The notes below the pieces were generated by a model, which was not told the DNA's origin, did not search any database, and worked only from the letters and a program-made list of their open reading frames with translations. From the NCBI GenBank assembly GCA_003223835.1, contig QHWR01000040.1, positions 15,134 to 79,133 of the forward strand: DNA of 64,000 bases. The letters run 5' to 3'. Position numbers and translations under genes: made by a program. The DNA is from Acidobacteriota bacterium (GTDB lineage Bacteria; Acidobacteriota; Vicinamibacteria; Vicinamibacterales; 2-12-FULL-66-21). Shown here piece after piece: positions 21,575-64,000 of the stretch; position 1 is the stretch's first letter, and the number at the start of each line of letters is the position of its first letter.

Positions 21575-24500
21575 CCACTACCGCCACGCGTTTCGTCCGC
21601 CTGCTCGCGCTCGTCCTGCTGGCCGTGTGTCCGGCACGGGAGACGTTCGCGCAGCTCAACGAGAACTGCACGGTCAGCGTGCTCAACCGGAACGTCCGCG
21701 TCAACCCGGACGGCACGTGGGTCCTGCCCAACGTCCCGGCGAATTTCGGGCCGGTGCGCGCGCGCGCGACGTGCATCATCGACGGCAGGACGATCTCCGG
21801 CGAGTCCGAGCCGTTCCTGGTTCCGCCGAATGGCGCGGTGAACGTGCCGCGAATCGTGTTCGGCGAGCTGACCCCCATCCCCACGACCGTGACGGTCACC
21901 GCGCCGGCGTCCCTCCTGACGGCGCTGGGATCGACGCTGCAGCTCACCGTGACCGCGGCGTACGCCAACAACACCACGCGCGACGTGACGGCCGAGGCGA
22001 CCGGCACGCAGTACACGATCAGCAACTCCGCGATCGCGACCGTCAGCGGCAACGGCCTCGTGACGGCCGTCAAGGCGGGGATCGTGCTCGTCCAGGCCAC
22101 GCACGAAGGCGCGTCGGGCCTGATCTCGATCCGCATCGCGCCGTCCAACGCCGACGCAGACGGCGACGGGATCCCCGACGACGTGGAGGTCGCCCTCGGC
22201 TTGAACCCGCAGGATCCGACCGACGCCGCCGAGGACTTCGATCGTGACGGCCTCACGAACCTGCAGGAGTACCTGCTCGGCACGGACATCCGCAAGGCGG
22301 ACACCGACGGCGACGGCCTCACCGACGGCGACGAAGTCGCGCGCGGGACGAACCCGCTGCTCCGGGACACCGACGGCGACGGCATTTCCGACGGCCTCGA
22401 GGTGCAGACCGGCAGCAACCCGCTCGACGCGAACAGCTACAACCTCGCCGCCGCGCTCACGTCGGTCACCGTCGCGCCGGCGCAGTTCGTCCTGACGTTC
22501 AACACGATCCTCGGCGACGTGACGCTGCAGCTCAAGGTGACCGGGCATTTGAAAGACGGCTCGACGATCGATCTCACCTCGACGCGGCGCGGCACGAACT
22601 ACAACTCGAGCAACCTGAACGTCTGCAACTTCGGCGCGACCGACGGCATGGTCTTCGCCGGCGAAGAAGGCAGCTGCACGATTACCGCGACCGTTGCAAC
22701 CTTCACCGCGTCGTCATCCGGCAACGTCCACAAGTTCTCGCCGAAGCCGTTGTCGTTCGTCGATCTCGGCGGCCCGGGCAACAACATCGACGTGAGCGGC
22801 GACTACGCGTACGTCGCGGTCGGCGCGGCCGGGCTCAAGGTGGTGAACGTCAGCGATCGCAAGACGCCGCAAATCGTCGCGACGCTCAGCCTGCCGGGGA
22901 CCGCGAACGACGTGAAGCTCGCCGGGACCCGCGCGTATGTCGCCGCGGGCGCGGCCGGCCTCCACATCGTCGACGTCAGCAACCCGATTGCCCCCAGACT
23001 GATCGGCACGTTCGACACGGCGGGGAGCGCCAACGACGTGCGGTCGAACGGCAACCTCGCGTTCGTCGCCGATGGATCGGCCGGACTGGCCATCATCGAC
23101 GTCTCGACGCCGGATACGCCGCGGCTGATCGGCGCGCTGAGTGGGATTGGCACGGCCAACGGCGTCGACGTCGTCGGCGGGCTCGCCCTCATCGCCAACG
23201 GATCCATGCTGCGCGTCGTGGACGTGAGCAATCCCGCGAACCCGCGATCGATCGGCACGGTCAACCTGCCCGGCGACGCGCAGGACGTCGTGGCCAGAGG
23301 CACGACCGCGTACGTCGCGGACTACACCGGCAGCCTGCAGGTCGTGGACTTCACGACGCCGACGGCGCCCGTCGTGGTCGGGACGACGACGCAGGCGCTC
23401 GGCGGCATCCTCTACGACGTCGCCGTGTCCGGCAACTTCGTGTTCGGCGCCGACATCTTCTTCGTCAACGGCGTGCCGATCGTCGACGTCACGAATCCGC
23501 ACAGCCCGATCCCGCGGGCGATCCTCGACTTCCGGCAGTTCCGGGACGACAACGGGTCCGGCATCGCGGCGGACGGCAGCTACGTCTACCTGACGACCCT
23601 CGAGGGCCGGCTCTACATCGGCCAATACCGCCTGCTCGAGGATCTCTATGGCGTGGCGCCGACGGTCAGCATCTCGGCGCCGGCGCCGGGCGCGACGTTC
23701 GTCGAAGGGGAAACGATCCCGGTCAGCGTGGTCGCAACCGACGACGTGTCGGTCACGGCCGTCACGCTCGAGGTCGACGGCGCCGCCGCGGCGACCGACA
23801 CGACGGCGCCCTATCAATTCACGGTCACGGCGCCGCACGGCGCGACGGGCGTCACGCTCGGCGCCTCCGCCGTCGATCTCGGGAACAACGTTGGCGTCGC
23901 GGCGGACATCCAGGTCGCCGTGACACCCGATCCGCTGACGACAGCGGCGGGGCGCGTGGTGGACCGGAACGGCACGCCGGTTGGCGGCGCGACCGTGTCG
24001 TGTCTCGCGCACACGGGCGTCACGACACCGGACGGCGCGTTCGCGATCCCCGGACTGCCGACCATTCAGCCGACGGTCCTGTGCACCGCCGATTACGTCG
24101 ATGCGCAGGGGATCACGCAGCACGGCGCGTCGGCGCGCGTGCCGCCGGTCCGCGGCGGGATGACGCAGGTCGGCGACATCCGGCTGCTGGCGGTTCCCGT
24201 GATCGCCTCGATCACGCCGAAGGCGATCGACTCGTTCCGGCCGCCCACCACGCTTCACGTGACGGGCGTGAACCTCACCGGCGCGACGTTCGCGTTCGTG
24301 TCCGACACGACGCCGATCGTGACCGCTGGAACGCCGCAGATCGACGCCGGCGGGACGTCGGCGACGCTGCCGATCAACGTGACGTTCGGCGCGCAGGGCA
24401 CGCTCGTGCTGACGGCGACCAACAGCGTCGGGACGTCCGAGACGTTCGCGACCGCCGGCAATTCGCTCGTGGTGCTCAGCCTGACGCCGGCCGGCGACGC

Positions 24501-41343: not shown

Positions 41344-41346
41344 TCA

Positions 41347-41449
41347 GTCCCTCGTCCCTAGTCCCTCGTCCCGAGTCCCTCGTCCCCAGTCCCTCGTCCC
41401 CAGTCCGGCGTCCTTGGGACCCGAGACGAGGGACTAGGGACTAGGGACT
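41347..41449. repeat. Heptad-armed hairpin: (GTCCCNN) x~10 facing (GGGACNN/TAGGGAC) x~4
   Basis: gtccctc gtcccta gtccctc gtcccga gtccctc gtcccca gtccctc gtcccca gtccggc gtccttg | gggaccc gagac gagggac tagggac tagggac. Fills the whole 90-bp spacer between the convergent TonB receptor and selA. The last four selA codons (AVPSP*) lie in the right arm. Confidence 0.9.
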
Positions 41450-42850: not shown

Positions 42851-42939
42851 GAATGACGAATGCCGAATGTCGAATGCCGAACGTGAACCGAGTGCCGATT
42901 CAGATCTCTTTCGGCATTCGGCATTCAGCATTCGGCATT
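42851..42939. repeat. Heptad-armed hairpin: (GAATGNC) x4 facing (GNCATTC) x4
   Basis: Left arm gaatgac gaatgcc gaatgtc gaatgcc (42851..42878). Right arm ggcattc ggcattc agcattc ggcattg (42912..42939). Lies in the divergent spacer between selA and the 42953 gene. Confidence 0.9.
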
Positions 42940-43396: not shown

Positions 43397-43467
43397 CAGC
43401 TTCCAGCTGCCAGCTTCCAGCTTCCAGCTCGGAACCATGGAACCGTTGGCCGGGAGCTGGTAGCTGA
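43397..43467. repeat. Heptad-armed hairpin: (CAGCTNC) x5 facing GAGCTGG TAGCTGA
   Basis: Left arm cagcttc cagctgc cagcttc cagcttc cagctcg (43397..43431). Loop ggaaccatggaaccgttggccgg. Right arm gagctgg tagctga (43454..43467). Occupies the whole spacer from the stop at 43396 to ATG 43473. Confidence 0.9.
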
Positions 43468-46048: not shown

Positions 46049-47697
46049 TGACGCGACGAGCGACGCTGACGGTCATCCTCGCGCTCGCCTCGATCCTCTT
46101 CTTCGTGGATCTCGGCGGCACCTCGATATGGGACGCGAACGAAGCGTTCTACGTCGAAACGCCGCGCGAGATGCTCGAGGCGCACGACCTCATCAACCCC
46201 ACGTTCGACTACGAGCCGCGCTTCAACAAGCCGGTGCTCAGCTACTGGGTGGTTGCGGCTTTCTACAAGCTGTTCGGCGTCTCCGTCGCCGTGCAGCGAA
46301 TCCCTATCGCCATCGGAGCGTTGATCATCGTCGCCTGCGCGTTCTTCCTCGCGCGTGCCGCCGCCGACGGGGGACTTGGGACGCGGGACGAGGGACGAGG
46401 GACGAGGGACGCGGCGTTGTGGGCCGCCGCCGGCCTCGCCGTTTCCCCCCGGCTGGTGATGTTCGCGCGCCGCATCTTCATCGACATCTGGATCACGGCG
46501 TTCATGTCGCTGACGCTGCTCTTCTTCGCGTTGAGCGAACGTCATCCGGAGAGGCGGCGGTTGTTCCTGATCCTGATGTACGTTGCCGCGGGGCTCGGGA
46601 CGCTGACGAAGGGCCCCGTCGCGATCGTGCTGCCCGCCCTCGCATTCCTCCTGTATCTGATCGTCCATGGGGAACTGCGTCGCCTTCGGTCGATGATGCT
46701 GCCGCTCGGCGTCGTCATCGTCTGCGCCGTCGTGGTGCCGTGGTATCTGGCGGTGTACCACCAGCACGGCTGGCCCTACATCAAGGCATTCTTCATCGGC
46801 GAGAACATCGGGCGCTACACGTCCGGCGTCGGCCTGCAGCAGGAGCGCGGTCTTCTGTTCTATCCGCCGATTATCCTCACCGACTCGTTGCCGCTGTCGT
46901 TTTTTCTGGTCGCCGCGGCGGCGTGGTGGTGGCGCGAGAGCCGGATCCAGACGCTCCTCTGGATCTGGATTGCCGTCATCGTGCTGTTCTTCTCGTTCTC
47001 GGCGAACAAGCAGGATCTGTACATCTACCCGATCGTGCCCGCGGTCGCCGCGCTCGCCGGTGCGTTCCTCTCGCGCGTTGAGGCGGATTCCTCGGGACCG
47101 TTCGCGTGGTGGGCGGCCGTCACGGCCGGCGTCGCCGGGATCTTCCTGGCGGCGGCCGGCGCCGGCGTGCTGTACGTGTTCGAGACGGCGGGCCGGGTGT
47201 ACGCGCTCAACGGCGCGATCGCCATCGGCGTCGTCGGCGTGTGCGGGGGTCTAATCGCGTTTGCGCTCGCCGTCGCGCGGAAGCCGCTGGCGTCGACGTT
47301 CACCCTGCTCATCCTGATGGTCGCGCTCGACTGGACGTTCGTGCTGCGCGTCTTGCCGGACTTCGAGCGCAACAAACCGGTCCCCGGGATCAGCGAGACG
47401 CTTCGCGCGCGCCTGCGTCCGGACGACGTCGTCGCCGTGTTTCACGAGGCGGTGCCGAGCCTCGTCTACTATCTGCGGCGGCACGTGGACATGTACATCG
47501 ACCCGCGCGCGTTCGTCGAGGCGATGTCGCAGCCACGGCGCGTCTACGGCGTGCTGACGCTCAGCGATTACGACGAGCTGCGCCCGCAGATCTCGAGGCC
47601 GACGTGCATCATCGATCGGCGGCCGACCTTCGCCGGAGCTGTTGCTCATTACGAACGATTGTGGCCGACGATAGGTTCGGGGTTCCTGAAACAGTGA
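46048..47697 (+). CDS. Glycosyltransferase family 39 (ArnT/PMT-like, undecaprenyl- or dolichyl-phosphate sugar dependent)
   Basis: ATG 46048 (TGATG overlap with the purH stop). MTRRATLTVILALASILFFVDLGGTSIWDANEAFYVETPREMLE…FNKPVLSYWVVAAFYKLFG…LGTLTKGPVAIVLPAL… is typical of GT39/PMT_2. Polytopic membrane protein. Confidence 0.8.
   Translation: MTRRATLTVILALASILFFVDLGGTSIWDANEAFYVETPREMLEAHDLINPTFDYEPRFNKPVLSYWVVAAFYKLFGVSVAVQRIPIAIGALIIVACAFFLARAAADGGLGTRDEGRGTRDAALWAAAGLAVSPRLVMFARRIFIDIWITAFMSLTLLFFALSERHPERRRLFLILMYVAAGLGTLTKGPVAIVLPALAFLLYLIVHGELRRLRSMMLPLGVVIVCAVVVPWYLAVYHQHGWPYIKAFFIGENIGRYTSGVGLQQERGLLFYPPIILTDSLPLSFFLVAAAAWWWRESRIQTLLWIWIAVIVLFFSFSANKQDLYIYPIVPAVAALAGAFLSRVEADSSGPFAWWAAVTAGVAGIFLAAAGAGVLYVFETAGRVYALNGAIAIGVVGVCGGLIAFALAVARKPLASTFTLLILMVALDWTFVLRVLPDFERNKPVPGISETLRARLRPDDVVAVFHEAVPSLVYYLRRHVDMYIDPRAFVEAMSQPRRVYGVLTLSDYDELRPQISRPTCIIDRRPTFAGAVAHYERLWPTIGSGFLKQ
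46371..46412 (+). repeat. In-frame (GGGACNN) x6 heptad array inside the GT39 coding sequence
   Basis: gggactt gggacgc gggacga gggacga gggacga gggacgc, 42 nt or 14 codons (GLGTRDEGRGTRDA), inserted in a loop after a TM helix. The core is the same as the right arm of the 41347 element. Confidence 0.85.
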
Positions 47698-52086: not shown

Positions 52087-53817
52087 ATGTCTGTCGCGCT
52101 GTTGTTCGTCGTTTCGCTGAGTTTTCCCGCCTCCGCCCCGAATCAGGCCGACCAGCCGACCGCGGCGTACTACTTCCTGCTGGGCAGAACGCTCGAAGGC
52201 AAAGGCAAGATCGACGACGCGATCGCCGCGCACCGCCAGGCGATCCAGCTCGATCCGAAGTCCGCCGAGCTGCACGCCGAACTGGCAGGCCTCTTCGCGC
52301 GGCAGGAGCGCGCGCCGGAGGCGTTCGACGAGGCGCGCGCGGCGCTCGACCTCGATCCGCAGAACGTCGAGGCGAATCGCATTCTGGGCACCGTGCTCGC
52401 GGCGTACGCGGACCAGCGGCGCGTGTTGAAGCCGGGCGACGATACGTCGACGTACATGCGGCGCGCGATCGGCGCGCTCGAAATCGCGCGGCGCGACGGC
52501 TCCGTCGATCTCAACACCGACCTCGCGCTCGCGCGTCTGTATCTGCAGGACCATGCCCCCGGGAAGGCCGCGCCGCTCCTCCGCCACATCCTCGACGATC
52601 AACCCGGCTTCGGCGAAGGCTATCTGCTGCTCGCGCAGGCGCAGGAGGAATCCGGTCATCCCGACGACGCGATCAATACGCTGAAAGCCGTCGTCGGCGA
52701 GGAGCCGACGTTCTATCGCGCCGTCGTCCGCCTCGCGGAGCTGTACGACGCGCACCGTCAATGGACGGAGGCGGCCGAGACGTGGTCGCAGGCGCAGAAG
52801 ATCAATCCGCGCAATCCCGACCTCGTGAGCCGCCGCATCACGGCGCTCATCAACAGCGGCAAGGCGGGGGACGCGCGCGCGGAATTGCAGATCGCGCTCA
52901 AGGCGCGGCCCGACGACCCGTCGCTCTTGTATCTCCTCGCGCAGGCGGAGCGCCAGGCGGGGGACTGGGACGCCGCCGAGGCGACGGCGCGTCAGCTCCA
53001 GAAGGCGGAGCCGAACGGCATCCGCGGACTTTACGTGCTGGCGCAGATTCTCGAGACGCGCAACCGTCACCAGGAGGCCGTCGCCCTGCTCCAGCCGGAG
53101 ATCGCGAAGCGCCGCGGCAACGCGGACGCGGGCTCCGGCGTCGCGCTGCTCCTCGGCACCGAGGGGCTCGCGCTGCAGGGACTGAAGAAGCATGACGAGG
53201 CCATCGCCGCGTTCAAGGAGGCGGCGGAGCTTGCGCCGGACGATCCGCTGCGGCAGGTCCTGCTGATCCAGAGCTACACCGAAGCGCGCCGGTTCAAGGA
53301 CGCGATCGCGGCGGCGGCCGCGGCGCAGAAGAGATTTCCTGACGACACGAGCGTCCTGTATCAACTCGGCGCCGCGTACGATCGCGGCGGGCAGCAGGTC
53401 GAAGCCGAGAAAACGTTCCGCGATCTGCTGCGGCACGACCCGCTCGACGCCAACGCGCTGAACTATCTCGGCTACATGTTCGCGGAGCGCGGCCGTGACC
53501 TCGACGAGGCCGTCGCGCTCATTCAGCGCGCGCTGAAAATCGATCCCGCCAACCCGTCCTATCTCGACAGCCTGGGCTGGGCGTACGTGCAGCAGGGGCA
53601 CCTCGATCTCGCCGATCAGCCCCTGACGGCGGCGGCGGATCGGCTGCCGAAGAACTCGGTCGTCCAGGATCATCTGGGCGACCTGCGTCAGAAGCAGCAT
53701 CGGCCCGCCGACGCGATCGCGGCGTGGCAGCGCGCGCTCGCCGGCGACGGCGAGGAGATCGACCGTGGCAAGATCGAGAAGAAGATAAAAGAGGCACAGG
53801 CGCTGCTGAGGAAATGA
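52087..53817 (+). CDS. Tetratricopeptide-repeat (TPR) protein, secreted
   Basis: Start MSVALLFVVSLSFPASAP (ATG 52087). Many TPR units (…AIAAHRQAIQLDPKSAELHAELAGLF…, …ALNYLGYMFAERGRDLDEAVALIQRALKIDPANPSYLDSLGWAY…). Occupies the position of the TPR gene that precedes lolB-ispE in many Gram-negatives. Confidence 0.85.
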   Translation: MSVALLFVVSLSFPASAPNQADQPTAAYYFLLGRTLEGKGKIDDAIAAHRQAIQLDPKSAELHAELAGLFARQERAPEAFDEARAALDLDPQNVEANRILGTVLAAYADQRRVLKPGDDTSTYMRRAIGALEIARRDGSVDLNTDLALARLYLQDHAPGKAAPLLRHILDDQPGFGEGYLLLAQAQEESGHPDDAINTLKAVVGEEPTFYRAVVRLAELYDAHRQWTEAAETWSQAQKINPRNPDLVSRRITALINSGKAGDARAELQIALKARPDDPSLLYLLAQAERQAGDWDAAEATARQLQKAEPNGIRGLYVLAQILETRNRHQEAVALLQPEIAKRRGNADAGSGVALLLGTEGLALQGLKKHDEAIAAFKEAAELAPDDPLRQVLLIQSYTEARRFKDAIAAAAAAQKRFPDDTSVLYQLGAAYDRGGQQVEAEKTFRDLLRHDPLDANALNYLGYMFAERGRDLDEAVALIQRALKIDPANPSYLDSLGWAYVQQGHLDLADQPLTAAADRLPKNSVVQDHLGDLRQKQHRPADAIAAWQRALAGDGEEIDRGKIEKKIKEAQALLRK

Positions 53818-54638
53818 AGGCAGGAGGCACAAGGCAGAAGGCAACCGCATCGGGATGGCTTGCGGCGTTCTGCCTTTTCCCTTTTGCCTTCTGCCTTTTT
53901 GCGTGCACGCCGAAGCCGCCTGCCCTTCCCGCTGGTGCCGCGTCGCCGTTTCCGGAATATCAACAGGCGTGGACCGAGGCGACGCGCGAGTGCGCCGGAG
54001 TCCAGACGTTGACGGCGTCGCTCGCGATGTCGGGGAAGGTCGCGAAGACAACGCTGCGCGGACGAATCGACGCCGGGTTCGCCGCGCCATCGAGCCTCAG
54101 GCTCGAAGCGGTCGCGCCGTTCGGCCGGCCGGTGTTCGTGCTGGTCGCCACCGGCGACGCCGGCACGCTGCTGCTCGAGCGCGACAACCGCGTGCTGCGC
54201 GGCGCGCGTCCGGCGGACATCGTCGAAGCGCTGGCGGGGGTGCCGCTCGGCGCCGCCGACCTCCGGGCGGTCGTGACCGGCTGCGGGCTGTGGGCCGCCG
54301 CGTCGCCGCACGAGGGGCGCCGGTACGCCGACGGATGGGCGGCGGTCGATCTCGATGACGGCACGGCATTCCTGCGGCAGGCGAACGCCCGCTGGCGGAT
54401 CGCCGCCGCTTCGTCGCCCCACATGACGGTGCGATACGATCTCGATCGCGACGGGCGTCCGTCCACGATTCGCATTTTCACCGATGCGTCCACGACCGCG
54501 GCCGACCTCACGCTGCGCGTCTCACAGGTCGACATCAACGTCACCCTCACTCCGCGAACGTTCACCATCGACGTCCCGCGTGACGCAGCGCCGATCACAC
54601 TCGACGAACTCAGGCGCGCCGGCCCGCTGGGACGCTGA
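53814..54638 (+). CDS. Outer-membrane lipoprotein, LolB-like by position (DUF4292/LolB-type)
   Basis: ATG 53814 (ATGA overlap with the TPR stop). N-terminus MKAGGTRQKATASGWLAAFCLFPFAFCLFAC has a lipobox-like LFAC. Followed directly by ispE. The family call rests mainly on synteny. Confidence 0.6.
   Translation: MKAGGTRQKATASGWLAAFCLFPFAFCLFACTPKPPALPAGAASPFPEYQQAWTEATRECAGVQTLTASLAMSGKVAKTTLRGRIDAGFAAPSSLRLEAVAPFGRPVFVLVATGDAGTLLLERDNRVLRGARPADIVEALAGVPLGAADLRAVVTGCGLWAAASPHEGRRYADGWAAVDLDDGTAFLRQANARWRIAAASSPHMTVRYDLDRDGRPSTIRIFTDASTTAADLTLRVSQVDINVTLTPRTFTIDVPRDAAPITLDELRRAGPLGR
53816..53898. repeat. Heptad-armed hairpin (NNAGGCA x4 / TGCCTNN x4) overlapping the lipoprotein signal peptide
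   Basis: Left arm aaggca ggaggca caaggca gaaggca (53816..53843). Right arm tgccttt tcccttt tgccttc tgccttt (53871..53898). The right arm encodes FCLFPFAFCLF. Confidence 0.88.
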
Positions 54639-55693: not shown

Positions 55694-55768
55694 TGGGGCG
55701 TGGCCAAGCGGTAAGGCGCGGGACTTTGGATCCCGTATTCGGAGGTTCGAATCCTCCCGCCCCAACCA
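55694..55768 (+). tRNA. tRNA-Gln (anticodon UUG)
   Basis: 75 nt, folded by hand:
- Acceptor stem: TGGGGCG / CGCCCCA
- Anticodon arm: CGGGA-CTTTGGA-TCCCG (UUG)
- T arm: GGAGG-TTCGAAT-CCTCC
- Discriminator A and an encoded CCA
Sits between ispE and prs as in many Gram-negative genomes. Confidence 0.92.
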
Positions 55769-55805: not shown

Positions 55806-56771
55806 ATGAGTCGCGGACAGCTCAAGCTTTTTTCGGGCAGCGCGCACCGCGCGCTCACGGAGGAAATCGCGGAGTTCCTGCAGGTGCCCGTCGGGCACTC
55901 GCGGCTCCAGCGGTTCCCCGACACGGAGGTCTCGTTCCAGATCGACGAGAACATCCGCGGCACGGACGTGTTCGTGATCCAGCCGACGTGCGCGGACGTC
56001 GATCGCAACCTGGTCGAGCTGTGCGTGATGATCGACGCGTTCAAGCGGTCGTCCGCCTCGCGCATCACGGCGGTGATTCCCTATTACGGCTACGCGCGCC
56101 AGGACCGCAAGGACAAGCCGCGCGTGCCGATTTCGGCGAAGCTGGTCGCGAACCTGCTGAGCGCCGCCGGCACGAACCGCGTGCTGACGATGGATCTGCA
56201 CAAGGCGCAGATCCAGGGGTTCTTCGACATCCCGGTCGATCATCTGTTCGCGGCGCCGGTGATCATCGACTACCTGTCGAGGCTCGCGACGACGCTCGAC
56301 CGCGGGTCGTCGAACATGACGATTGTGTCCCCCGACGCGGGGGGCGCCGAGCGCGCGCGGGCGTACGCGAAGCGGCTCGACGCGGAGCTGGCGATCATCG
56401 ACAAACGCCGCACCGACGACGGCACGGCGGAGGTCATGAACGTCATCGGCGACGTGAACGGCCGCGTGTGTATCCTGCAGGACGACATCATCGACACTGC
56501 GGGAACGATCGTGAAGGCGGCGGGCGCGCTCAAGGAGAGCGGCGCCGAACGCGTGCTCGCGTGCGCGGTGCACGGCGTGTTGAGCGGCCCCGCGATCGAA
56601 CGGCTCGAGGCGGCGCCGATCGATCAGGTCGTGATCACCAACACGATCCCGCTCAACAGCGAGCGGGCGAAGTGCTGCCGGAAGATCAAGCAGCTCTCGG
56701 TCGCGCGTCTGCTGGGACAGGCGATCCGGAGCATTCACGAGGAAACGTCGGTTTCGTCCTTGTTCGTATAG
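55806..56771 (+). CDS. prs: Ribose-phosphate pyrophosphokinase
   Basis: 321 aa. Contains …LKLFSGSAHRALTEEIA…, …VIPYYGYARQDRK… and …ILQDDIIDTAGTIVKAA…, the canonical Prs motifs. Confidence 0.96.
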   Translation: MSRGQLKLFSGSAHRALTEEIAEFLQVPVGHSRLQRFPDTEVSFQIDENIRGTDVFVIQPTCADVDRNLVELCVMIDAFKRSSASRITAVIPYYGYARQDRKDKPRVPISAKLVANLLSAAGTNRVLTMDLHKAQIQGFFDIPVDHLFAAPVIIDYLSRLATTLDRGSSNMTIVSPDAGGAERARAYAKRLDAELAIIDKRRTDDGTAEVMNVIGDVNGRVCILQDDIIDTAGTIVKAAGALKESGAERVLACAVHGVLSGPAIERLEAAPIDQVVITNTIPLNSERAKCCRKIKQLSVARLLGQAIRSIHEETSVSSLFV

Positions 56772-56773
56772 CT

Positions 56774-56801
56774 GGAAGCCGGAAGCTGATATATGGAAGC
56801 C
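56774..56801. repeat. Heptad repeat GGAAGCN (x3 in a 4-heptad register) across the prs-ctc spacer and the ctc start
   Basis: ggaagcc ggaagct gatatat ggaagcc. The reverse complement (CAGCTTCC) is the core of the 43397 element. Confidence 0.55.
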
Positions 56802-57418
56802 ACACTGCAAGCGGGCGGCTGCGTGCCGCGGGCCGGATCCCGGCCGTCCTCTACGGCACGCACAAGGGGAAGGCCACCGAGATCGCGGTCGATCCGAAGG
56901 CGCTCCTGCGCATCCTGCACTCCGACTCCGGGGTCAACACGCTCATCGGGCTGAGCGTCGACGGATCGGCGACGCGCGTGCTCGTCAAGGAGTACCAGCT
57001 CGACCCGATCGATCACAAGCTGCTCCACGCGGACTTCTATCAGGTCGCGATGGACAAGGCGATCACCGTCACCGTGCCGATCGTGCTCAAAGGTGAACCG
57101 AAGGGCGCCAAGCAGCAGGGCGGGATCGTCGACTTCGTCAATCGTGAGATCGAGATCGAGTGTCTGCCCGGCGACATCCCCGAGCACGTCGACGTGGACA
57201 TCAGCGAGCTGATGCTGCACCAGGGCGTGCGCGTGCGCGACCTCGTCCAGGGCGTGAAGTGGACGGCGATCAGCGACCCCGACATGATGATCGTGCACGT
57301 CGTGACGCTGAAGGCGGAGGAGGAGCCGAAGCCGGCCGAGGCCGCCGCCGCCGCGCCGGCCGCGCCCGCCGAGCCCGAGGTGATCAAGAAGGGCAAGACG
57401 GAGAAAGAAGAAGAATAA
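56793..57418 (+). pseudogene. rplY: 50S ribosomal protein L25 / general stress protein Ctc, frame broken near 56812
   Basis: ATG 56793 gives MEATLQA. The L25 sequence then continues in another frame (…RLRAAGRIPAVLYGTHKGKATEIAVDPKALLRILHSDSGVNTLIGLSVDG…, the C-terminal part of track ORF 55772..57418). About 12 residues of the usual …R…GKG.ARRLR… segment are missing. Confidence 0.85.
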
Positions 57419-57426
57419 TTGGTGGA

Positions 57427-57456
57427 TTGGTGAAGTGGTGATCACCAACTCACCAA
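57427..57456. repeat. Near-perfect 30-nt palindrome built from TTGGTGA/TCACCAA repeats
   Basis: ttggtgaagtggtgatcaccaactcaccaa, with a further ttggtgga copy just upstream. Lies between the ctc stop (57418) and the pth ATG (57456). The centre GTGGTGATCACC recurs at 59506..59517. Confidence 0.85.
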
Positions 57457-58055
57457 TGAAGCTCGTTGTCGGCTTGGGCAATCCGGGCAGGAAGTACGAA
57501 GGGACGCGGCACAACGCGGGATTCGCGGTCATCGACGCGCTGGCCGCGCGTCACCACGTCGACTGGGAGGCGGCGCCGCGCGGGATCGAGGCGCTCGTCG
57601 CGCGCTGGCGGACCGCCGACGTCGTCTTCGCCAAGCCGCTGACGTTCATGAACAGCAGCGGCCCGGCGGTCGCCGCGCTGCTGCAGTTCTACAAGGTCGA
57701 CCCGGCGGAGCTGCTCGTCGTCGTCGACGAAGTGAACCTCGAGCTGGGGCGGCTGCGCACGCGCGCGAGCGGATCGGCCGGCGGCCACAACGGCCTGAAG
57801 TCGGTCGTCGCGGCGCTCGGGGGCGACGGGTTCGCGCGGATGCGCGTCGGCGTCGGGCGCGGCGACGCGAGGCGCGACCTCGCGGATCACGTGCTGGCGA
57901 GATTCGAGACGTCGGAGCGCGCGGTCGTCGACGAAACGATCGGGCGCGCCGCCGACGCGGTGGAGCTGTTCATCAACGAGGGCATCGTCCCCATGATGAA
58001 CCGGTACAACAGGAAAGACGACAGCGGGATCGACCCGACAGAATCGTCTCCTTGA
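57456..58055 (+). CDS. pth: Peptidyl-tRNA hydrolase
   Basis: [30 protein letters not shown]…[10 protein letters not shown]… is canonical Pth. Start taken at the internal ATG of track ORF 57435. Confidence 0.95.
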
Positions 58056-58103
58056 GAAAATGGGCCATTTGGCCGGATTTCTCCAAAGTCCAGAAGGAGA
58101 GCC

Positions 58104-58559
58104 ATGAGTCAGACCAGACAGTACGAGCTCGTCTACATCGTCGGCGCGGAGACCGGCGAGCAGGAGATCGCCGACCTGCACACGCAGGTCGAGCAGATCG
58201 TGCAGCGCTTCAACGGCACCCTCGACAAGACCGAGAACTGGGGGCGCCGGAAGCTGGCGTACGAAATCAGTCACCATCGCGAAGGCACCTACGTCGTCGA
58301 GACGATTTCCGGCTCGGGCGAGCTGATGAAGGAAATCGACCGGCGGCTGCGCGTGACCGACACGGTCATCCGGCACCTCATCGTGCGGATCGACGAGGAT
58401 CTGCGCGTCGCGGGGCGGCGGCGCGAGGACCGGCGGTCGTCGCAGGCGCGGCGCCGCGTGGCGCGCGGGTTGCCGCCCGAGCCGGCGGCCGGCGAGCGGC
58501 GCGACCACGGCGATCTGGAAGAAGAGGATCGGGGCGAAGGGGTCGAGGTGCAGCGATGA
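58104..58559 (+). CDS. rpsF: 30S ribosomal protein S6 (with a ~50-aa charged C-terminal extension)
   Basis: [55 protein letters not shown]…, followed by an Arg/Glu-rich tail. Confidence 0.93.
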
Positions 58560-58849
58560 GCGAAGAACGAGGATCGCGGGGACGCGGGGGCAAGTCGGCC
58601 GACAAGGGCAAGGGAGAGCAGCCGCGCCGCGGCGGGTTCTTCCGGCGCCGCCGGGTGTGCAAGTTCTGCGTCGACAAGATCGATTACATCAACTACAAGG
58701 ACGTGCGGCTGCTGATGCCGTTCATCCCGGAGCGCGGCAAGATTCAGCCGCGGCGGATTTCGGGGACCTGCGCGGCGCACCAGCGGAAGCTGCAGACCGC
58801 GATCGCCCGCGCGCGGCAGCTGGCGCTGATTCCGTATGTGACCGATTGA
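58556..58849 (+). CDS. rpsR: 30S ribosomal protein S18
   Basis: ATG 58556 (ATGA overlap with rpsF). Contains …[65 protein letters not shown]…. Confidence 0.94.
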
Positions 58850-58880
58850 AGAGTGGAAGACTAGATGCGCCGACGGCCCC

Positions 58881-58964
58881 GACACGAAGACACGAAGGTA
58901 CGAAGGATACGAAGAAAACACATTTGGCTTCGTGTGCTTCGTTGGCTTCGTGATCTTCGTGATG
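58881..58964. repeat. Repeat-armed hairpin: (NNACGAAG) x4 facing (CTTCGTNN) x4
   Basis: gacacgaa gacacgaa ggtacgaa ggatacgaa gaaaacacatttg gcttcgtgt gcttcgttg gcttcgtgat cttcgtgat. Lies between rpsR and rplI. Confidence 0.9.
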
Positions 58965-58994
58965 AGACCGTGGTCCCGTGACAGGAAAATCATC

Positions 58995-59410
58995 ATGGAA
59001 GTGATTCTTCGAGAACATGTCGAAAAGCTCGGCAAACGCGGCGACGTCGTCAGGGTCGCCGAGGGCTACGCGCGCAACTACCTGCTGCCGCGGAAGCTGG
59101 CGCTTGCCGCGAGCGCAAGGTCGCCGAGGTGCGCGAGGCCGAAGAGAAGTCGCAGGCCGACGCGATCGCGCAGCGGCTGAACGCGCTCGAGATCGAGATC
59201 GGGCGCCGCGTGGGGGAGCACGAGACGCTGTACGGTTCGGTCACCTCCGCCGACATCGCGCACGCGGTGCAGGCGAAAGGGTTCGACGTGGACAAGCGCA
59301 AGATCGTGCTCGCGGAACCGCTCAAGGCGCTGGGCGAAACGATGGTCACCGTGAAAATTCACCGCGACGTGACCGCGCAGGTCAAGGTCAAGGTCGTCCC
59401 GCAGACGTAA
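58995..59410 (+). pseudogene. rplI: 50S ribosomal protein L9, frame broken near 59113
   Basis: [40 protein letters not shown] (frame of track 58932..). Continues in another frame as …[63 protein letters not shown]… (track 59129..59410). About 10 residues of the linker helix are missing. Confidence 0.87.
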
Positions 59411-59443
59411 AGGCCGTCGTGTCCCAGAACGAGCGCTGAATTT

Positions 59444-59517
59444 CACCACAGAGCCAACAGAGAACACAGAGGCCGACTCAGTTTTCTGTGACCTCTGTTT
59501 CCTCTGTGGTGATCACC
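59444..59517. repeat. Repeat-armed hairpin: (NNNACAGAG) x3 facing (CTCTGTNNN) x3, ending in GGTGATCACC
   Basis: caccacagag ccaacagag aacacagag gccgactcagtttt ctgtgac ctctgtttc ctctgtggtgatcacc. Begins 34 nt after the rplI stop. Confidence 0.9.
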
Positions 59518-59536
59518 CACGCTGCATTTTCGGGCA

Positions 59537-59566
59537 TTCGACAGTACACCTCCCCGGTCGTAGAAT
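59537..59566 (+). promoter_or_regulatory. Sigma-70-like promoter TTCGAC-N18-TAGAAT upstream of dnaB
   Basis: TTCGAC at 59537..59542 and TAGAAT at 59561..59566. The ~40-nt leader contains caattcac caattcac gaactgactgattcttcgtg (59575..59611), another short repeat/hairpin. Confidence 0.5.
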
Positions 59567-59608
59567 CTCTCCACCCAATTCACCAATTCACGAACTGACT
59601 GATTCTTC

Positions 59609-60967
59609 GTGCCCGACGTCGCTGTCTCCGACCGTACGCTGCCGCATTCGCTCGACGCGGAGAAGTCCGTGCTCGGCGCGATCCTGATCCACAACGAGGC
59701 GTTCAACCACGCCGCGGAGCTGATCGACTCGCGGGATTTCTTCCGCGACGCGCACCGCCGCATCTTCGAGAAGATGATCGTGCTCAGCGAGCGCGGCGAC
59801 GCGATCGATCTGATCACGCTGAAGGACGAACTGGCGCGGTCGGGCGAGCTGGACGAAGTCGGCGGGCCCGCCTACATCGCGTCGCTCGCCGACGGCGTGC
59901 CGCGCTCCGCCAACATCGAGCACTACGCGCGCATCGTCAAGGAGAAGTCCACCCTCCGGAACCTGATTTACTCCGCCAACAAGATCCTGACGACGGCGTA
60001 CGAGGCGGAGCAGGACGCGGACCTGATCCTGGACGAGGCGGAGAAATCCATCTTCGAGATCGCGGAGGACCGGATCCGCGAGGGGTTCGTGCCGCTGCGC
60101 GACCTCGTGCAGGGCAGCTTCGCCACGATCGAGAAGCTCCAGCAGCACAAGGGGCTGGTCACGGGCGTGCCGACGGGGTTCGCCGATCTCGACGAGATGA
60201 CCTCTGGGCTCCAGCGGTCGGACCTCATCCTCATCGCCGCGCGGCCGTCCATGGGAAAGACCAGCCTCGTGCTCAACATCGCGCAGCACGTCGGCGCGCA
60301 GACGGATATGACCGTCGGCTTCTTCAGCCTGGAGATGGCGAAGGAACAGCTCTTCATGCGGCTGCTGACGTCGGAGGCGCGGATCGACGCGCACCGGTTC
60401 CGCAGCGGCCACCTGAGCGAGAAGGATTACGGCCGCCTGTCCCACGCCCTCGGCACGCTCGCCGAGTCGCGCGTGTTCATCGACGACACGGCGTCGATCG
60501 GCGTGCTGGAAATGCGCGCAAAGGCGCGGCGGCTCAAGGCGGAGCACGGCCTGCACCTGCTGATCGTGGATTACATCCAGTTGATGCAGGGGCGCGGCCG
60601 GTTCGAGAACCGGCAGGCGGAGCTGGCCTCGATCTCGCGCTCGCTCAAGGGGCTCGCCAAGGAGCTGCACGTGCCGATCGTCGCGCTCTCGCAGCTCTCA
60701 CGCGCGCCCGAGACACGATCGGACCACCGGCCGCAGCTCTCCGATCTTCGCGAGTCGGGCGCTCTCGAGCAGGACGCCGACGTCGTCCTCTTCATCTTCC
60801 GCGAGGAGCAGTACCGCGACGACAACGGCCAGCCGAACCAGGCGGCCGAAGGGATCGCGGAGATCATCATCGGCAAGCAACGCAACGGCCCCACCGGTGT
60901 CGTCAAGCTCGCGTTCATCAAAGAGCACACGCGGTTCGAGAACCTCGCCCACGGCGCTGTCCAGTGA
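59609..60967 (+). CDS. dnaB: Replicative DNA helicase
   Basis: 452 aa with a GTG start. Contains …[17 protein letters not shown]…, …[17 protein letters not shown]… (Walker A), …[10 protein letters not shown]… and …[33 protein letters not shown]…. Confidence 0.96.
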
Positions 60968-62160
60968 TCCGGCCGACCGTCGCGCGCGTCGACCTTCAGG
61001 CCATCGAGTCGAATCTGCGCGCGATCGCCGCATTTCTTCTCGGTCCCCGGTCTCCGGTCGCCCCGCCTCCGCCGCCTGGCGGCGACGGCGAGGCCTCGCC
61101 AGAGCCCGCGCCGCATTCAACGCGGGCGGCGGCGGGTCCTCGAATCATCGGTGTCGTCAAGGCGAACGCCTACGGCCACGGCGCTCGGGAAGTCGGCCTC
61201 GCGCTCGAGCGCGCGGGGGCGGCCGTGCTCGCGTGCGCGGATATCGAGGAGGGGATCGCGCTGCGCGACGCCGGCGTCCGCGCCCCGATTCTGGTGTTCG
61301 GCGCGCTCGGCATCAGCGACCTCGACGGCCTCTTCACGCACACGCTGACGCCGACGATTTCCACGCCGTCCGCGGCGGCCGCGTTGCAGCAGGCCGCGGC
61401 ACGCCACGCCACGGTGCTCCGCTGTCATCTCAAGATCGACACGGGCATGAACCGCCTCGGCTTCCGGCACGACAACCTCGCGCGGACGATTCCCGAAGTC
61501 GCGTCCAGCCGCAACCTCGCGATCGACGCCGTCTACACGCACTTCGCGACCGCCGACGATCCCGACGGCGACATGTTCGCGGTCCAGCGCGAGCGCTTCG
61601 AGCGCGCGTGCGCGGAGGTCAGCGCGCTCGGGATTCGACCGGCGTCGCGTCACGCCGCGAACAGCGCCGCCCTCCTGCGCGACGAGCGGGTCTGGTACGA
61701 CTTCGTCCGCCCCGGACTGCTCCTCTACGGCATCGTCCCGCCGCCGCTCGCCTCGACGCTGCGGCTGCGACCCGCCCTGTCACTCCACAGCCGTATCGTC
61801 CATGTGAAAGGGATGCGGCCCGGCGAGGGCACGGGCTACGGGCTCAAGACCGTCGTCGATCGTCCGGCGACGATCGCCGTCGTGCCCGCGGGGTACGCCG
61901 ACGGCCTCGATCGCCGGCTCGCGGGCGCCGGCGCGATGCTGGTTCGCGGCCGCCGCGCCCCCATCGTCGGATCGGTGTGCATGGACATGACGACGATCGA
62001 CGTCACCGGGATGGATGTGTACCCGGGCGACGAGGTGGTGATTGTCGGCGAGCAGGACGGCGCGTCGATCGGCATGCGCGAGATGTCCGCCGCGATCGGC
62101 ACGATCCCGTACGAGCTGCTTTGCCGCGTCGGCACGAGGATTGAAAGGCTCTACGATTGA
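60964..62160 (+). CDS. alr: Alanine racemase (with a ~35-aa Pro/Gly/Ala-rich insertion near the N-terminus)
   Basis: GTG 60964 (GTGA overlap with dnaB). Contains …[14 protein letters not shown]… (PLP lysine), …[13 protein letters not shown]… and …GYADGL…[11 protein letters not shown]…. The insertion is [35 protein letters not shown] at about 61036..61140. Confidence 0.92.
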
Positions 62161-62652
62161 AGATTGGCGATTGGCGATTGGCGATTCACGAATTGACGAT
62201 TACAGGATTGCCGATTCACGGATTGACGAATACCGATTGCCGATTCACGAATTGACGATTACGGGATTGCCGGTTTACGGATTCACGAATACAGATTGCC
62301 GATTCACGAATTGACGATTACAGGATTGCCGGTTTACGGATTGACGAATTGAGGATTGCCGATTGACGGATTGCCGAGTGCGGATTGGCGGTTGCCAATC
62401 GTCAACACGCCAATCGTCAACACGCCAATCGTCAATGCCCCAATCGTCAATATGCCAATCGTCAATACGCCAATCGTCAATGCCCGAATCGTCAATGCCC
62501 GAATCGTCAATGACCCAATCGTCAATGACCCCAATCGTCAATTGCCCAATCGTCGATCCGTCAATCGTTAATCGCCAATCGTCGATCCGTCAATCGTTAA
62601 TCGCTAATCGACAATTCGTGAATCTTCAGTCTCCAATCGCCAATCGCCAATG
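62155..62652. repeat. ~490-bp palindromic tandem-repeat array (15-bp period; core GATTG/CAATC) filling the alr-radA spacer
   Basis: - Left arm (62155..62389): alternating 7/8-mers such as gattggc, gattcac, gaattgac, gattaca, ggattgcc…
- Dyad: gattggc-ggtt-gccaatc at 62383..62400.
- Right arm (62394..62650): CAATCGTCAANNNNN at a strict 15-bp period (starts 62396, 62411, 62426 … 62516).
- Outermost pairing: gattggcgattggcgatt (62162..) is complementary to aatcgccaatcgccaat (62633..).
- Overlaps: covers the alr stop and the radA ATG. Confidence 0.92.
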
Positions 62653-64000
62653 AAAGCGAAGATTGTCTACGTGTGCCAGGAATGCGGCGCGCAGGCGCCG
62701 AAATGGCTCGGACGCTGCGCGGACTGCGGCGCGTGGAACTCCCTCGTCGAGGAACGCCCGGTGCCCGTGGGGGCCGGGGCGGGCGCGGCGGCGGGAGCCG
62801 CGGCGGAGCGGTACGCACTGGCTGCCACATCGGGGCCGCGGCTGTACGCGGAAATTGACACTGTCGTCGCCGAGCGGCTGTCCACCGGCATCGGCGAGTT
62901 CGATCGCGTGCTCGGCGGCGGGGTCGTGCCCGGATCGCTGGTGTTGATCGGCGGCGAGCCCGGCATCGGGAAGTCGACGCTGCTCCTGCAGGCGGCCGCG
63001 CACTTCGCGCACGCGATCGGCCCGGTGCTCTACAGCTCCGGCGAGGAATCCGAGCACCAGATCAAATCGCGCGGCCAGCGGCTCGGCGTCGCCGCCGCTC
63101 CTCTTTATCTGCTCGCCGAAACGTGCCTCGAGCGGATCCTCGAGGAGATCGCGCGGCTGCGCCCCAGGTTCGTGATCGTGGACTCCGTGCAGACGGTGTT
63201 CTCGCTCAAGTTCCAGTCGGCGCCCGGCAGCGTCGGTCAGGTGCGCGAGGCCGCGACGCAGCTGCTCTTCGCGGCGAAGGGGCAGAACATCCCGACCTTC
63301 CTCGTCGGCCACGTCACGAAGGACGGCAGCCTCGCGGGTCCGAAAGTCCTCGAGCACATCGTGGACACGGTCCTCTATTTCGAAGGCGAGAAGCACCACT
63401 CGCACCGCGTCGTCCGCGCGGTCAAGAACCGGTTCGGCGCGATCAGCGAGCTGGGCGTCTTCGAGATGACGGGACAGGGGCTGCGCGCGGTGCCGAATCC
63501 GTCGCAGCTCTTTCTCGCCGAGCGTCCCGCGAACGCGCCTGGCTCCGCGGTGCTCTGCTGCGTCGAGGGATCGCGGCCGCTGCTCGTCGAGGTGCAGGCG
63601 CTCGTGAGCACGAGCAGCTACGGCAACGCGCGCCGGATGGCGAGCGGGCTCGATCAGAATCGGCTGTCGCTGCTGCTCGCCGTCCTCGAGAAGCGCGCGG
63701 GGCTGAACCTGATGGCGGAGGACGTGTTCGTCAACGTCGCCGGCGGCATGTCGATCGAGGAGCCCGCCGCGGACCTTGCGGTCGTCGCCGCCGTCGCGTC
63801 GAGCGTCCGCAACCGCCCGATCAAGCCGGGGACCGCCGTCTTCGGCGAGGTCGGGCTCGCCGGCGAGGTGCGCGGGACGACGCAGGCGTCGCTGAGGGTG
63901 AAAGAGGCGGGGCAGCTCGGGTTCACGCGCGTCGTGATGCCCGAGGCCAACATCGTCCCCGGCGAGGCGCCCGACGGGTGCGAGCTGGTCGGCGTCAGGA
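62650..64000 (+). CDS. radA: DNA repair protein RadA/Sms (3' end beyond the window)
   Basis: Absent from the track because it runs off the end. From ATG 62650: MKAKIVYVCQECGAQAPKWLGRCADCGAWNSL (zinc ribbon), …LIGGEPGIGKSTLLLQ… (Walker A), …HVTKDGSLAGPKVLEHIVDTVLYFEGE… and KNRFG. Confidence 0.94.
   Translation, partial: MKAKIVYVCQECGAQAPKWLGRCADCGAWNSLVEERPVPVGAGAGAAAGAAAERYALAATSGPRLYAEIDTVVAERLSTGIGEFDRVLGGGVVPGSLVLIGGEPGIGKSTLLLQAAAHFAHAIGPVLYSSGEESEHQIKSRGQRLGVAAAPLYLLAETCLERILEEIARLRPRFVIVDSVQTVFSLKFQSAPGSVGQVREAATQLLFAAKGQNIPTFLVGHVTKDGSLAGPKVLEHIVDTVLYFEGEKHHSHRVVRAVKNRFGAISELGVFEMTGQGLRAVPNPSQLFLAERPANAPGSAVLCCVEGSRPLLVEVQALVSTSSYGNARRMASGLDQNRLSLLLAVLEKRAGLNLMAEDVFVNVAGGMSIEEPAADLAVVAAVASSVRNRPIKPGTAVFGEVGLAGEVRGTTQASLRVKEAGQLGFTRVVMPEANIVPGEAPDGCELVGVR

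Follow-up and report, generated by a model that had tools for sequence, protein, structure and literature searches.

The prs-ctc-pth-rpsF-rpsR-rplI-dnaB gene block of a soil Acidobacteriota bacterium of the order Vicinamibacterales raises a simple question: what are the short, repeat-armed hairpins that lie between its genes, and how did they come to be there? We examined the block within a stretch of 64,000 nucleotides (contig QHWR01000040.1 of assembly GCA_003223835.1; hereafter the window), which has a G+C content of 68%. The initial annotation of this window had described a different hairpin in every spacer of the block, and had proposed a role in differential mRNA processing or stability rather than simple termination. 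The elements belong to a fast-evolving, hypervariable class of array palindromes, the typical member being a short tandem array of 7-nt units (sometimes 8-9 nt) followed by a reverse-complement array, in a non-coding spacer. Our best reading, to which we assign a probability of about 55%, is that these hairpins are made in place by slippage and template switching, occur as stem-loops in RNA, and are only weakly selected at the level of RNA. None of them is an intrinsic terminator, a phase-variation switch or a copy of a mobile element.

Repeats were surveyed with Tandem Repeats Finder (TRF), and the significance of each fold was expressed as a z score against 200 dinucleotide shuffles. The elements and related features of the block are as follows.

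56774..56801, + strand: one-armed GGAAGCN array, running from the 21-nt prs>ctc spacer into ctc
57418..57457, + strand: hairpin filling the ctc>pth spacer from stop to start codon (dG -19.7 kcal/mol, z -4.26)
58056..58103, + strand: pth>rpsF spacer without an array (fold z -0.93)
58871..58973, + strand: bulged 103-nt hairpin in the middle of the rpsR>rplI spacer (dG -52.1, z -6.82)
59443..59512, + strand: hairpin 33 nt past the rplI stop (dG -39.7, z -7.20)
59538..59566, + strand: TCGACA-17-TAGAAT, a candidate sigma-70-like promoter that follows the rplI-distal hairpin and precedes dnaB
59575..59611, + strand: dnaB leader element, with CCAATTCA twice (59575-59591; 2.1 copies by TRF)

We observed that three of the five elements listed in the initial annotation were strong hairpins, namely the ctc>pth palindrome with its tandem-repeat arms, the ACGAAG/CTTCGT element and the ACAGAG/CTCTGT element. 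None of the 200 shuffles folded equally well in any of these cases, and both strands folded about equally. The other two did not behave as hairpins. The GGAAGCN heptads formed a one-armed array with nothing inverse to pair with (+ strand z +1.74, - strand z +0.05), and the fold of the dnaB leader was not significant (z -1.23, with 25 of 200 shuffles folding equally well). A hairpin was therefore present at three of the six junctions rather than in every spacer, because the pth>rpsF spacer carried no array and rpsF and rpsR overlap.

The ctc>pth hairpin has a 5' arm of ATTGGTGG ATTGGTGA AGTGGTGA, with (A)TTGGTGG as the first unit, and a 3' arm of TCACCAAC TCACCAAT; TRF reported the array with period 8 at 57417-57441. 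Its stem pairs the final base of the ctc TAA with the U of the pth AUG, so that the start codon of pth, a gene without a Shine-Dalgarno sequence, sits in the base of the stem. In the rpsR>rplI hairpin, four (N2-3)ACGAAG units (58881-58915) pair with four CTTCGT(N3) units (58924-58964) inside an outer ACGG/CCGT stem. The 3' end of this hairpin lies about 22-31 nt upstream of the rplI ATG (58995), and the ribosome-binding region is free. The third hairpin is an inverted repeat with 28-nt arms that are 86% complementary, in which three ACAGAG units pair with TCTGTG/CTCTGT units. Its outer stem, TCACCACAGAG/CTCTGTGGTGA, overlaps the palindrome GGTGATCACC (59508-59517). The initial annotation had noticed a centre shared by two of the elements, and indeed GGTGATCACC occurred exactly twice in the window (57437 and 59508) against 0.05 expected. 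The re-use of cores elsewhere was also borne out, with CTTCG at 7856-7887, and GAAGCTG complementing the CAGCTTC core at 43397.

The hairpin at 59443-59512 closes the rpsF-rpsR-rplI unit at its 3' end and precedes the promoter-like site. This site matches the consensus at 10 of 12 positions (one site against 0.4 expected in shuffles, and a consensus match only) and lies about 43 nt upstream of the dnaB GTG. Such a site would imply that dnaB is transcribed apart from rplI, with the CAATTCAC repeats at the 5' end of the dnaB leader, and suggests that the rpsF-rpsR-rplI unit has its 3' end at the hairpin. The leader itself has only a weak stem of 6 bp (CACGAA/TTCGTG), which shares bases with the GTG start.

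The order of the genes is kept across relatives. Their coordinates in the window are given below, together with that of a tRNA upstream.

55694-55765: tRNA, the sole Rfam match that reached its gathering score
55806-56771: prs
56793-57418: ctc, with its TAA stop at 57416-57418
57456-58055: pth, with its AUG at 57456-57458
58104-58559: rpsF
58556-58849: rpsR, overlapping rpsF
58995-59410: rplI
59609-60967: dnaB, with a GTG start at 59609

We then asked whether these elements are confined to the block. The initial annotation had grouped them with elements at 41-43 kb, and the folds supported a single architectural class (z -6.85 and -5.87 for the 41-43 kb elements). The members of this class outside the block were as follows.

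41345..41449: about 9 units of (AGTCCCT/CGTCCCN) against 3.6 units of (GACTAGG), between convergent genes (dG -66.1, z -6.85)
42851..42939: 4.4 units of (GAATGCC) against 4.3 units of (TTCGGCA), filling a divergent spacer (dG -48.7, z -5.87)
43397-43467: element of the same class (z -2.9)
53816..53899, + strand: 4 units of (GAAGGCA) against 4 units of (TGCCTTT), beginning on the upstream stop (dG -47.4, z -4.08)
62154..62651, + strand: giant element of about 490 nt, reaching from the alr stop codon as far as the ATG of radA

The three hairpins of the block and four other elements of the window had fold z scores from -2.9 to -7.2. In the giant element, the (GATTGNC...)n arm repeats at a higher order every 30 nt and the (CAATCGN...)n arm opposite it every 15 nt; the whole folds as one long bulged hairpin at -219 kcal/mol on the sense and -234 kcal/mol on the antisense strand. 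In total, the intergenic DNA of the window contained 12 arrays of period 7-8, against 0.3 in shuffles (maximum 1).

To see how widely the class extends, we used a comparison set of the window and 80 related Vicinamibacterales loci (1.42 Mb in total). The DnaB of the window shares 74-90% identity with that of these 80 metagenome-assembled Vicinamibacterales/Acidobacteriota genomes. The genes were called with a crude GC3-based caller (82% coding), and the counts by context that depend on it are therefore approximate. Period 7 was dominant: its 363 arrays compare with 165 for period 6 and 144 for period 9, the latter two being mostly coding. Among arrays with at least 2.8 copies, the counts were 353 for period 7, 103 for period 8, 85 for period 6 and 107 for period 9. 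The period-7 arrays lay mostly outside the called genes (303 of 363, compared to 13 of 165 for period 6), and 179 of them had at least two inverse cores within 120 nt. When merged, the census comprised 330 elements, of which 162 had two arms and 168 had one. Array density differed between lineages: L050, L053 and L063 were rich in arrays, and L062 and L077 had none.

The 303 intergenic heptamer arrays represented 147 distinct units and had no shared consensus. Units containing AGCTG were the commonest, though far from dominant, and the top unit, AAGCTGG, accounted for only 17 of the 303. The units had about 52% GC, in comparison to 68% for the genome. This lack of sequence specificity argues against a mobile element or a single binding protein. 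Insertion of REP/REPIN, MITE or BOX-like copies into spacers would account for elements that are intergenic, palindromic, and present or absent among relatives. However, every element of the window had its own core, there were no evident terminal inverted repeats, target-site duplications or identical sequences in multiple copies, and homologous elements diverge in place between conserved flanks. We consider this explanation largely refuted, and give it very little weight.

Another possibility is that the elements were produced by misassembly of repetitive reads, as the window does contain assembly faults. Frameshifts interrupt both its ctc, which lacks about 34 nt internally at 56814, and its rplI, which lacks about 49 nt at 59106. 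A search with the S18 protein found an identical sequence on 19 soil-metagenome contigs, and the 10 that we retrieved had ~95-100% nucleotide identity to the window (blastn). Among these same-species contigs, L081, L082, L084 and L085 encode an intact 219-aa L25, and L081, L082, L084 and L086-L090 encode an intact 148-aa L9. In contig L083, which matches the window at 100% identity across 59107-62800, the rplI site is occupied by a run of N, and ctc carries a smaller deletion. The two frameshifts are scaffolding or gap artefacts and not pseudogenes. The length of the giant element also differs between assemblies: the alr>radA spacer is 309 nt in L081 and 489 nt in the window, which is either a true length polymorphism or an assembly collapse. 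In contrast, as many as nine independent assemblies, made from different samples, reproduce the three hairpins of the block to the base, which establishes that these hairpins are not artefacts. Further, contigs carrying the class had names in the MEGAHIT (k141_), SPAdes (NODE_) and other styles, and some are, judging from the naming style, presumably long-read assemblies. Misassembly therefore deserves hardly any credence as an explanation of the class.

As the gene order is conserved, each spacer of the block could be followed through the relatives. The class recurred there, but each spacer was occupied in only 25-50% of about 70 genomes:

prs>ctc: array in 35 of 68 genomes, 24 of them paired
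ctc>pth: array in 19 of 69 genomes, 6 of them paired
pth>rpsF: array in 26 of 68 genomes, 16 of them paired
rpsR>rplI: array in 33 of 73 genomes, 30 of them paired
rplI>dnaB: array in 25 of 77 genomes, 15 of them paired

The median length of these spacers was 81-157 nt with arrays and 26-95 nt without. Relatives that lack an array often have minimal spacers of 9-40 nt, down to 9 nt from stop to start at rpsR>rplI. At ctc>pth, the relatives have either a junction of 1-40 nt or an overlap, or else arrays of the GATTGSC/TTGGCGA type.

We observed that the motif families track the spacers. The prs>ctc arrays are mostly of the GCTGGAA type, in the form (GCTGGAA)n/(TTCCAGC)n; those at ctc>pth belong to the GATTGSC, TTGGCGA or AATTGGTG families, and those at rpsR>rplI to GGTTCGG or CACGAMG. 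Since motif families are bound to spacers in this way, the GGAAGCN array and the CAATTCAC pair of the window are most simply taken as decayed arms of hairpins that are intact in relatives. Because 35 of 68 relatives carry an array at prs>ctc, 24 of them paired, the GGAAGCN array is probably the remnant 3' arm of such a hairpin. It retains three phased direct copies (GGAAGCC at 56774-80, GGAAGCT at 56781-87 and GGAAGCC at 56795-801), of which the last forms codons 1-3 of ctc (ATG at 56793). The CAATTCAC pair in the dnaB leader is likewise probably the decayed 3' arm of a (AATTGGTGA)n/(CAATTCACC)n hairpin. Full hairpins of this motif were found at the same site in L003, L027 and L035, ending just 5' of the dnaB start.

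Homology was evident at rpsR>rplI. Here the window, L004, L066, L017 and L022 carry elements that have diverged internally between flanks that are conserved. Their cores change coordinately in both arms, being ACGAAG:CTTCGT, ACGACG:CGTCGT, ACAAAG:CTTTGT or ACTAAG:CTTAGT, and 9 of the 33 consensus pairs among the five sequences show compensatory double changes. The elements of one junction can range from 29 to 498 nt. A spacer keeps a homologous element over a moderate evolutionary distance, after which the element is lost, replaced or reduced to one arm. We also considered comparing the substitution rate of the elements with that of synonymous sites; alignments of the repetitive spacers are unreliable for this purpose, and only the abundance of insertions and deletions was robust.

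Within the species, the picture was one of stability. No gain or loss of units was seen in the three block hairpins among 5-9 same-species contigs, and there were only occasional single-nucleotide polymorphisms (SNPs). The ctc>pth hairpin was identical in 5 contigs, the rpsR>rplI hairpin had a constant number of units in 9, and the one at 59443-59512 showed SNPs and 1-nt indels only, with its unit number unchanged, in 8. A recurrent SNP, 58908 U>C, converts a G.U pair into G-C. The fixed unit number places the turnover between species and not between strains. These are therefore not phase-variation loci, and the idea of phase-variable contingency simple sequence repeats (SSRs) was rejected.

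The pth>rpsF spacer, which has no array in the window, has a pairing of its own. Here UUCUCC pairs with GGAGAG, and in the window fold an anti-Shine-Dalgarno-like sequence (UCUCCUU) covers the Shine-Dalgarno block of rpsF (AAGGAGA). The two blocks, TCTCCTTG and AGTCCAGAAGGAGAG, recur in five of the seven relatives shown (L001, L079, L003, L005 and L010); L004 and L066 have TCTCCTTG with a variant Shine-Dalgarno block, AGTCCATAAGGAGAG. An Rfam scan gave no family match at this pairing. The two blocks of L079 and L010 are separated by an array hairpin, which looks as if it had been sited to leave both intact.

The position of the elements relative to genes was then considered. At four of the five block junctions the main stem begins a median of 0-4 nt past the upstream stop codon, and the stems end 1-37 nt before the next start codon. 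The ribosome-binding region is left free at rpsR>rplI and prs>ctc, and the stem reaches the start codon at ctc>pth. Outside the conserved block, there were 0.31 elements per gap between tandem genes, 0.30 between convergent genes and 0.16 between divergent genes. The suggestion that these are not simple terminators was confirmed: the block contained 3 terminator-like sites against 3.0 expected, and no U-tract followed the stems. None of the matches in this chance-level scan was an array hairpin; the match at 59505-59521, for instance, was only the GGTGATCACC tip followed by CTGCATTTTC. With their units of about 52% GC, the elements were rejected as intrinsic (Rho-independent) terminators. We also rejected the idea that the 7-nt period serves to provide stop codons in all frames, as units containing a stop numbered 72, against 82 +/- 6 expected.

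An A.C mismatch becomes a G.U pair when the opposite strand is read, and we therefore compared the folds of the sense and antisense strands. In co-directional spacers with arrays, the sense strand folded better in 120 cases and the antisense in 78 (mean difference -1.8 kcal/mol, p = 0.002), as compared to 192 and 157 in array-free spacers (p = 0.07); base skews were negligible. For paired elements alone the numbers were 80 and 48 (p = 2e-4), with 450 G.U pairs against 379. Some hairpins were found in the sense strand only. At ctc>pth, where (GAUUGCC)n pairs with (GAUUGGC)n, the energies were -41.8 against -18.4 kcal/mol in L003, and -77.1 against -36.3 kcal/mol in L005. One-armed arrays were purine-rich on the sense strand in 72 cases and on the antisense strand in 39. 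The reverse situation was also met with: antisense-only G.U hairpins were seen at L039 7301-7405, L023 11351-11600 and L074 1789-1966, where the direction of transcription seems unambiguous. These may be due either to antisense transcripts or to a transition sweeping a whole arm in either direction. The G.U asymmetry was accordingly rejected as a decisive test of RNA versus DNA, being significant but small, only marginally above the array-free control, and faced with strong counter-examples. In our reading, an RNA-level filter is real but weak, acting over a largely strand-indifferent process.

It is quite improbable that the elements work as DNA, that is, that the 7-nt units bind a nucleoid-associated or regulatory protein, or that cruciforms affect replication, supercoiling or transcription. 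The nearly equal folding of both strands in the window agrees with such a role, as do the phased units, which recall iteron-type binding arrays, the over-representation of AGCTG-containing units, and the presence of elements in divergent promoter spacers (e.g. 42851-42939). However, 147 heptamers without a common consensus are difficult to reconcile with it. In addition, transitions commonly separate the two arms in every unit; RNA would accommodate them as G.U pairs, but a cruciform would be left with mismatches. The elements are also depleted where promoters lie, and the one-armed arrays are biased in orientation relative to transcription.

The main competing explanation is that the elements are dedicated post-transcriptional devices, in which RNase III cleavage or a block to 3' exonucleases sets the stability or translation of each cistron. 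In a variant of this, the hairpin would gate downstream translation, with the start region sequestered until the upstream ribosome arrives. The long, near-continuous helices on the sense RNA would fit such a device, as would the compensatory maintenance of pairing, the better sense folding with its wobble hairpins in L003 and L005, the depletion in divergent spacers, and the stable unit number within the species. So too would the stems that abut stop codons, above all at ctc>pth, where the stop is paired with the AUG of a gene that has no Shine-Dalgarno sequence. Against this, the same junction is empty in 50-75% of the related genomes, and where occupied it holds elements that vary enormously in length and stability. 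Elements also occur in convergent and divergent spacers and in a coding region, and are thus not restricted to operons; half of the arrays have a single arm, and the L039 hairpin forms only in the antisense strand at an unambiguous junction. Rfam offered no family for them either, as its covariance models matched nothing in 56700-59700 with E < 0.1. Taken together, we regard this explanation as possible but rather unlikely. In particular, the differential processing of translation-gene mRNAs proposed by the initial annotation did not find support, since the class occurs in all contexts, with 25-50% occupancy, and even inside alr.

The alr arrays deserve a closer description. Heptamer arrays lie in frame inside this gene, and as three units of 7 nt make seven codons, they encode 7-residue protein repeats. 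They occupy a permissive loop between the N-terminal strand (RVDL motif) and the KANAYGHG motif, and among relatives the insert can be as short as about 10 residues or as long as about 85. In-frame arrays were found in L005 (...RPSTIDHRPSEIGPRPSTLDHRPSEIG...), L017, L023, L026, L035 and L037, and the window has a remnant at 61041-61059. The coordinates are as follows.

5057-5228 in L005: alr array
6330-6431 in L017: alr array
11482-11543 in L023: alr array
11523-11565 in L026: alr array
11518-11605 in L035: alr array
61030-61140 in the window: corresponding region of alr

In L005, the first arm precedes the alr start and its inverse falls within the gene, so that the pair brackets the translation start. 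The in-frame alr arrays are evidence of a general mutational process. We also observed that arrays often take in the adjoining stop or start codon, as with GATTGAAG, which is met at the stop of alr and at the TTG starts of pth. Units of GATTGAA include the TTG with which pth begins (L003 ctc>pth) or the TGA that ends alr (window 62150-62170), and TGGAAGC is both a rotation of the prs>ctc unit and the start of ctc (A-TGGAAGC). These matches suggest that arrays are seeded from local sequence at conserved gene termini, and such seeding would explain why a given motif family recurs at a given spacer.

The following course of events would account for these observations. A local sequence or small inverted repeat may be amplified by replication slippage that in these genomes strongly favours 7-nt units, no transposition being involved. 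The arms would be kept complementary by template switching, and/or by contraction and re-expansion from one compensated pair of units, and the element would persist at its spacer for a while before decaying. As the spacers are presumably transcribed, the RNA would contain them as long stem-loops with bulges (-20 to -220 kcal/mol), beginning 0-4 nt past the upstream stop. Folding may render the insertion harmless, because the stop and the next start or ribosome-binding site are held close, so that translational coupling would survive, and because no long unstructured RNA would be left for Rho. As a by-product, the upstream 3' end may be protected, as it is by REP stem-loops. The hairpin is thus probably the tolerated form in transcribed spacers. 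Both mutational steps have precedents. Template switching between the arms of imperfect inverted repeats homogenises and expands them, according to two reports (PMC8604942, PMC13100816), and the excess of heptamer SSRs has been ascribed to the footprint of DNA polymerase, as stated by Rehm et al. citing their ref. 33 (PMC4692102).

Several observations weigh against this reading. We infer both the transcription of the elements and their folding in vivo, as well as their origin by slippage and template switching. The unit number is constant among same-species contigs of ~95-100% identity, which means that the mutation rate is not high on that time scale. The lengths of the two arms are only weakly correlated (rho 0.22, with a crude measure of the 3' arm limited to 120 nt), and the variable positions between the cores are not mirrored between the arms; neither is predicted by frequent copying from arm to arm. 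The compensatory changes could equally reflect selection for RNA function. The sense advantage, in turn, was found in 61% of array spacers and in 55% of array-free ones, and is not clearly larger in the former. Lastly, there are the hairpins that favour the antisense strand, such as ctc>pth of L039 (-35 kcal/mol sense, -62 kcal/mol antisense), and several dnaB>alr elements also fold better in that direction.

A bolder version is conceivable, although we consider it unlikely. In this version, 7-nt arrays would be written actively, possibly with the help of an enzyme, into permissive DNA (Alr included), and the hairpin would be selected in transcribed spacers as a module of RNA that preserves coupling and shields from Rho and RNase. 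If true, it would represent a self-renewing, sequence-independent class of operon spacer structure, and a process common to Vicinamibacterales, Xanthomonas and some cyanobacteria.

Two observations on other repeats in the window may be recorded here. A one-armed (GGGACGA) array of 6.6 units at 46366-46411 fits the G3N4 quadruplex pattern of the Xanthomonas and Nostoc heptamers (hairpin z 0.0). An open reading frame of about 4,690 codons at 20803-34878 contains a 66-nt tandem repeat at 22299-22424.

How do these elements relate to repeats already described? Bacterial tandem repeats of heptamers have been on record from the 1990s onwards, in cyanobacteria and later in Xanthomonas and Beggiatoa. 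An excess of heptamers was reportedly described by Mrazek et al. in 2007. Within the literature that could be searched, we found no description of such arrays in Acidobacteria or Vicinamibacterales. With somewhat better than even confidence, we place the present elements as a lineage-wide variant of this poorly understood "heptamer repeat" phenomenon rather than as a dedicated regulatory device. The clade is unusually informative, as it offers many motifs instead of one and half of its arrays as hairpins. The conserved operon allows homologous elements to be followed through gain, coordinated change of the arms, decay to one arm and loss, and the array process visibly invades a protein-coding loop. 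Two questions thereby become testable: does the 7-nt period come from the replication machinery, and is the hairpin kept by template switching or by selection on RNA? In practical terms, such elements lengthen intergenic DNA, break short-read assemblies, and can pass for regulatory RNAs in abundant soil Acidobacteria.

The REP/BIME sequences of enterobacteria and pseudomonads are extragenic palindromes within or at the ends of operons, whose RNA stem-loops can stabilise the upstream mRNA; each genome has one conserved family, spread by a RAYT transposase. They resemble the present elements in being transcribed palindromes that are present or absent among relatives, and are the best analogue for how a hairpin might act. 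Unlike them, each element here has its own sequence and evolves in place. One conserved palindrome in many copies per genome, as in REP/REPIN, was not seen in the window, where all cores differ. Nor did we find the terminal inverted repeats, target-site duplications and near-identical copies of MITEs, there being no repeated copies. Mycobacterial MIRUs have units of 40-100 bp, with small open reading frames that overlap the neighbouring stop and start codons, and form no arm-against-arm hairpins. They share with the present elements the location of tandem repeats between operon genes and the preserved translational coupling of the flanking cistrons, and differ from our 7-9 nt units and arm-against-arm hairpins. 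CRISPR arrays are also different, as the units here are 7-9 nt long and contiguous; the only Rfam hit here was a chance match inside ctc, below the threshold.

The STRRs of cyanobacteria are described as direct arrays of a few fixed motifs. As here, they are tandem heptamers in excess in non-coding DNA, with several motif families per genome, and the cause proposed for STRRs and heptamer SSRs, slippage linked to the polymerase footprint, is the one that our reading adopts. The systematic head-to-head inverse arrays, spacer-bound motif families and compensatory evolution seen here go beyond that description. According to Rehm et al., the excess of heptameric long SSRs in bacteria was reported in 2007 (their ref. 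33), and the Calothrix STRRs are treated in their ref. 39 (PMC4692102). In Beggiatoaceae, cyanobacteria and Bacteroidetes, TAACTGA repeats lie directly against start codons, where they take the place of a recognisable ribosome-binding site; the spacers of relatives are shorter and repeat-free, and a translational role has been suggested (MacGregor 2015, PMC4679880). Intergenic heptamer arrays at start codons and shorter repeat-free spacers in relatives are common to both systems. Unlike here, however, TAACTGA is a single motif, with 169 direct sets against one indirect set and essentially no hairpins (PMC4679880).

The closest described case is that of the inverted GGGAATC heptamer arrays of Xanthomonas (GGGGAYT in Nostoc). 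These are intergenic 7-nt repeats, with 70-75 inverse pairs capable of forming stem-loops per Xanthomonas genome; they are mostly transcribed, have no identified function, and are under-represented between divergent genes (Rehm et al. 2015, PMC4692102). Like these repeats and the STRRs, the present elements are head-to-tail 7-nt units in excess, with a bias to non-coding DNA and, here, frequent inverse pairs that can form stem-loops. As in Xanthomonas, they are fewer between divergent genes, and occupy the same intergenic site in relatives with varying length and sequence. The Xanthomonas repeats essentially belong to a single motif family, whose G-tracts form G-quadruplexes, and four is their preferred number of units. 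In the Vicinamibacterales there is no such dominant motif with quadruplex potential and about four units, and G-tract arrays are only occasional. Instead, this acidobacterial lineage has 147 heptamers, most of them without G-tracts, units that are often 8-9 nt, arms of up to about 240 nt, a high fraction of hairpins and hairpins of large size. Motif families bound to their spacers, with compensatory evolution, are a further trait of the present elements.

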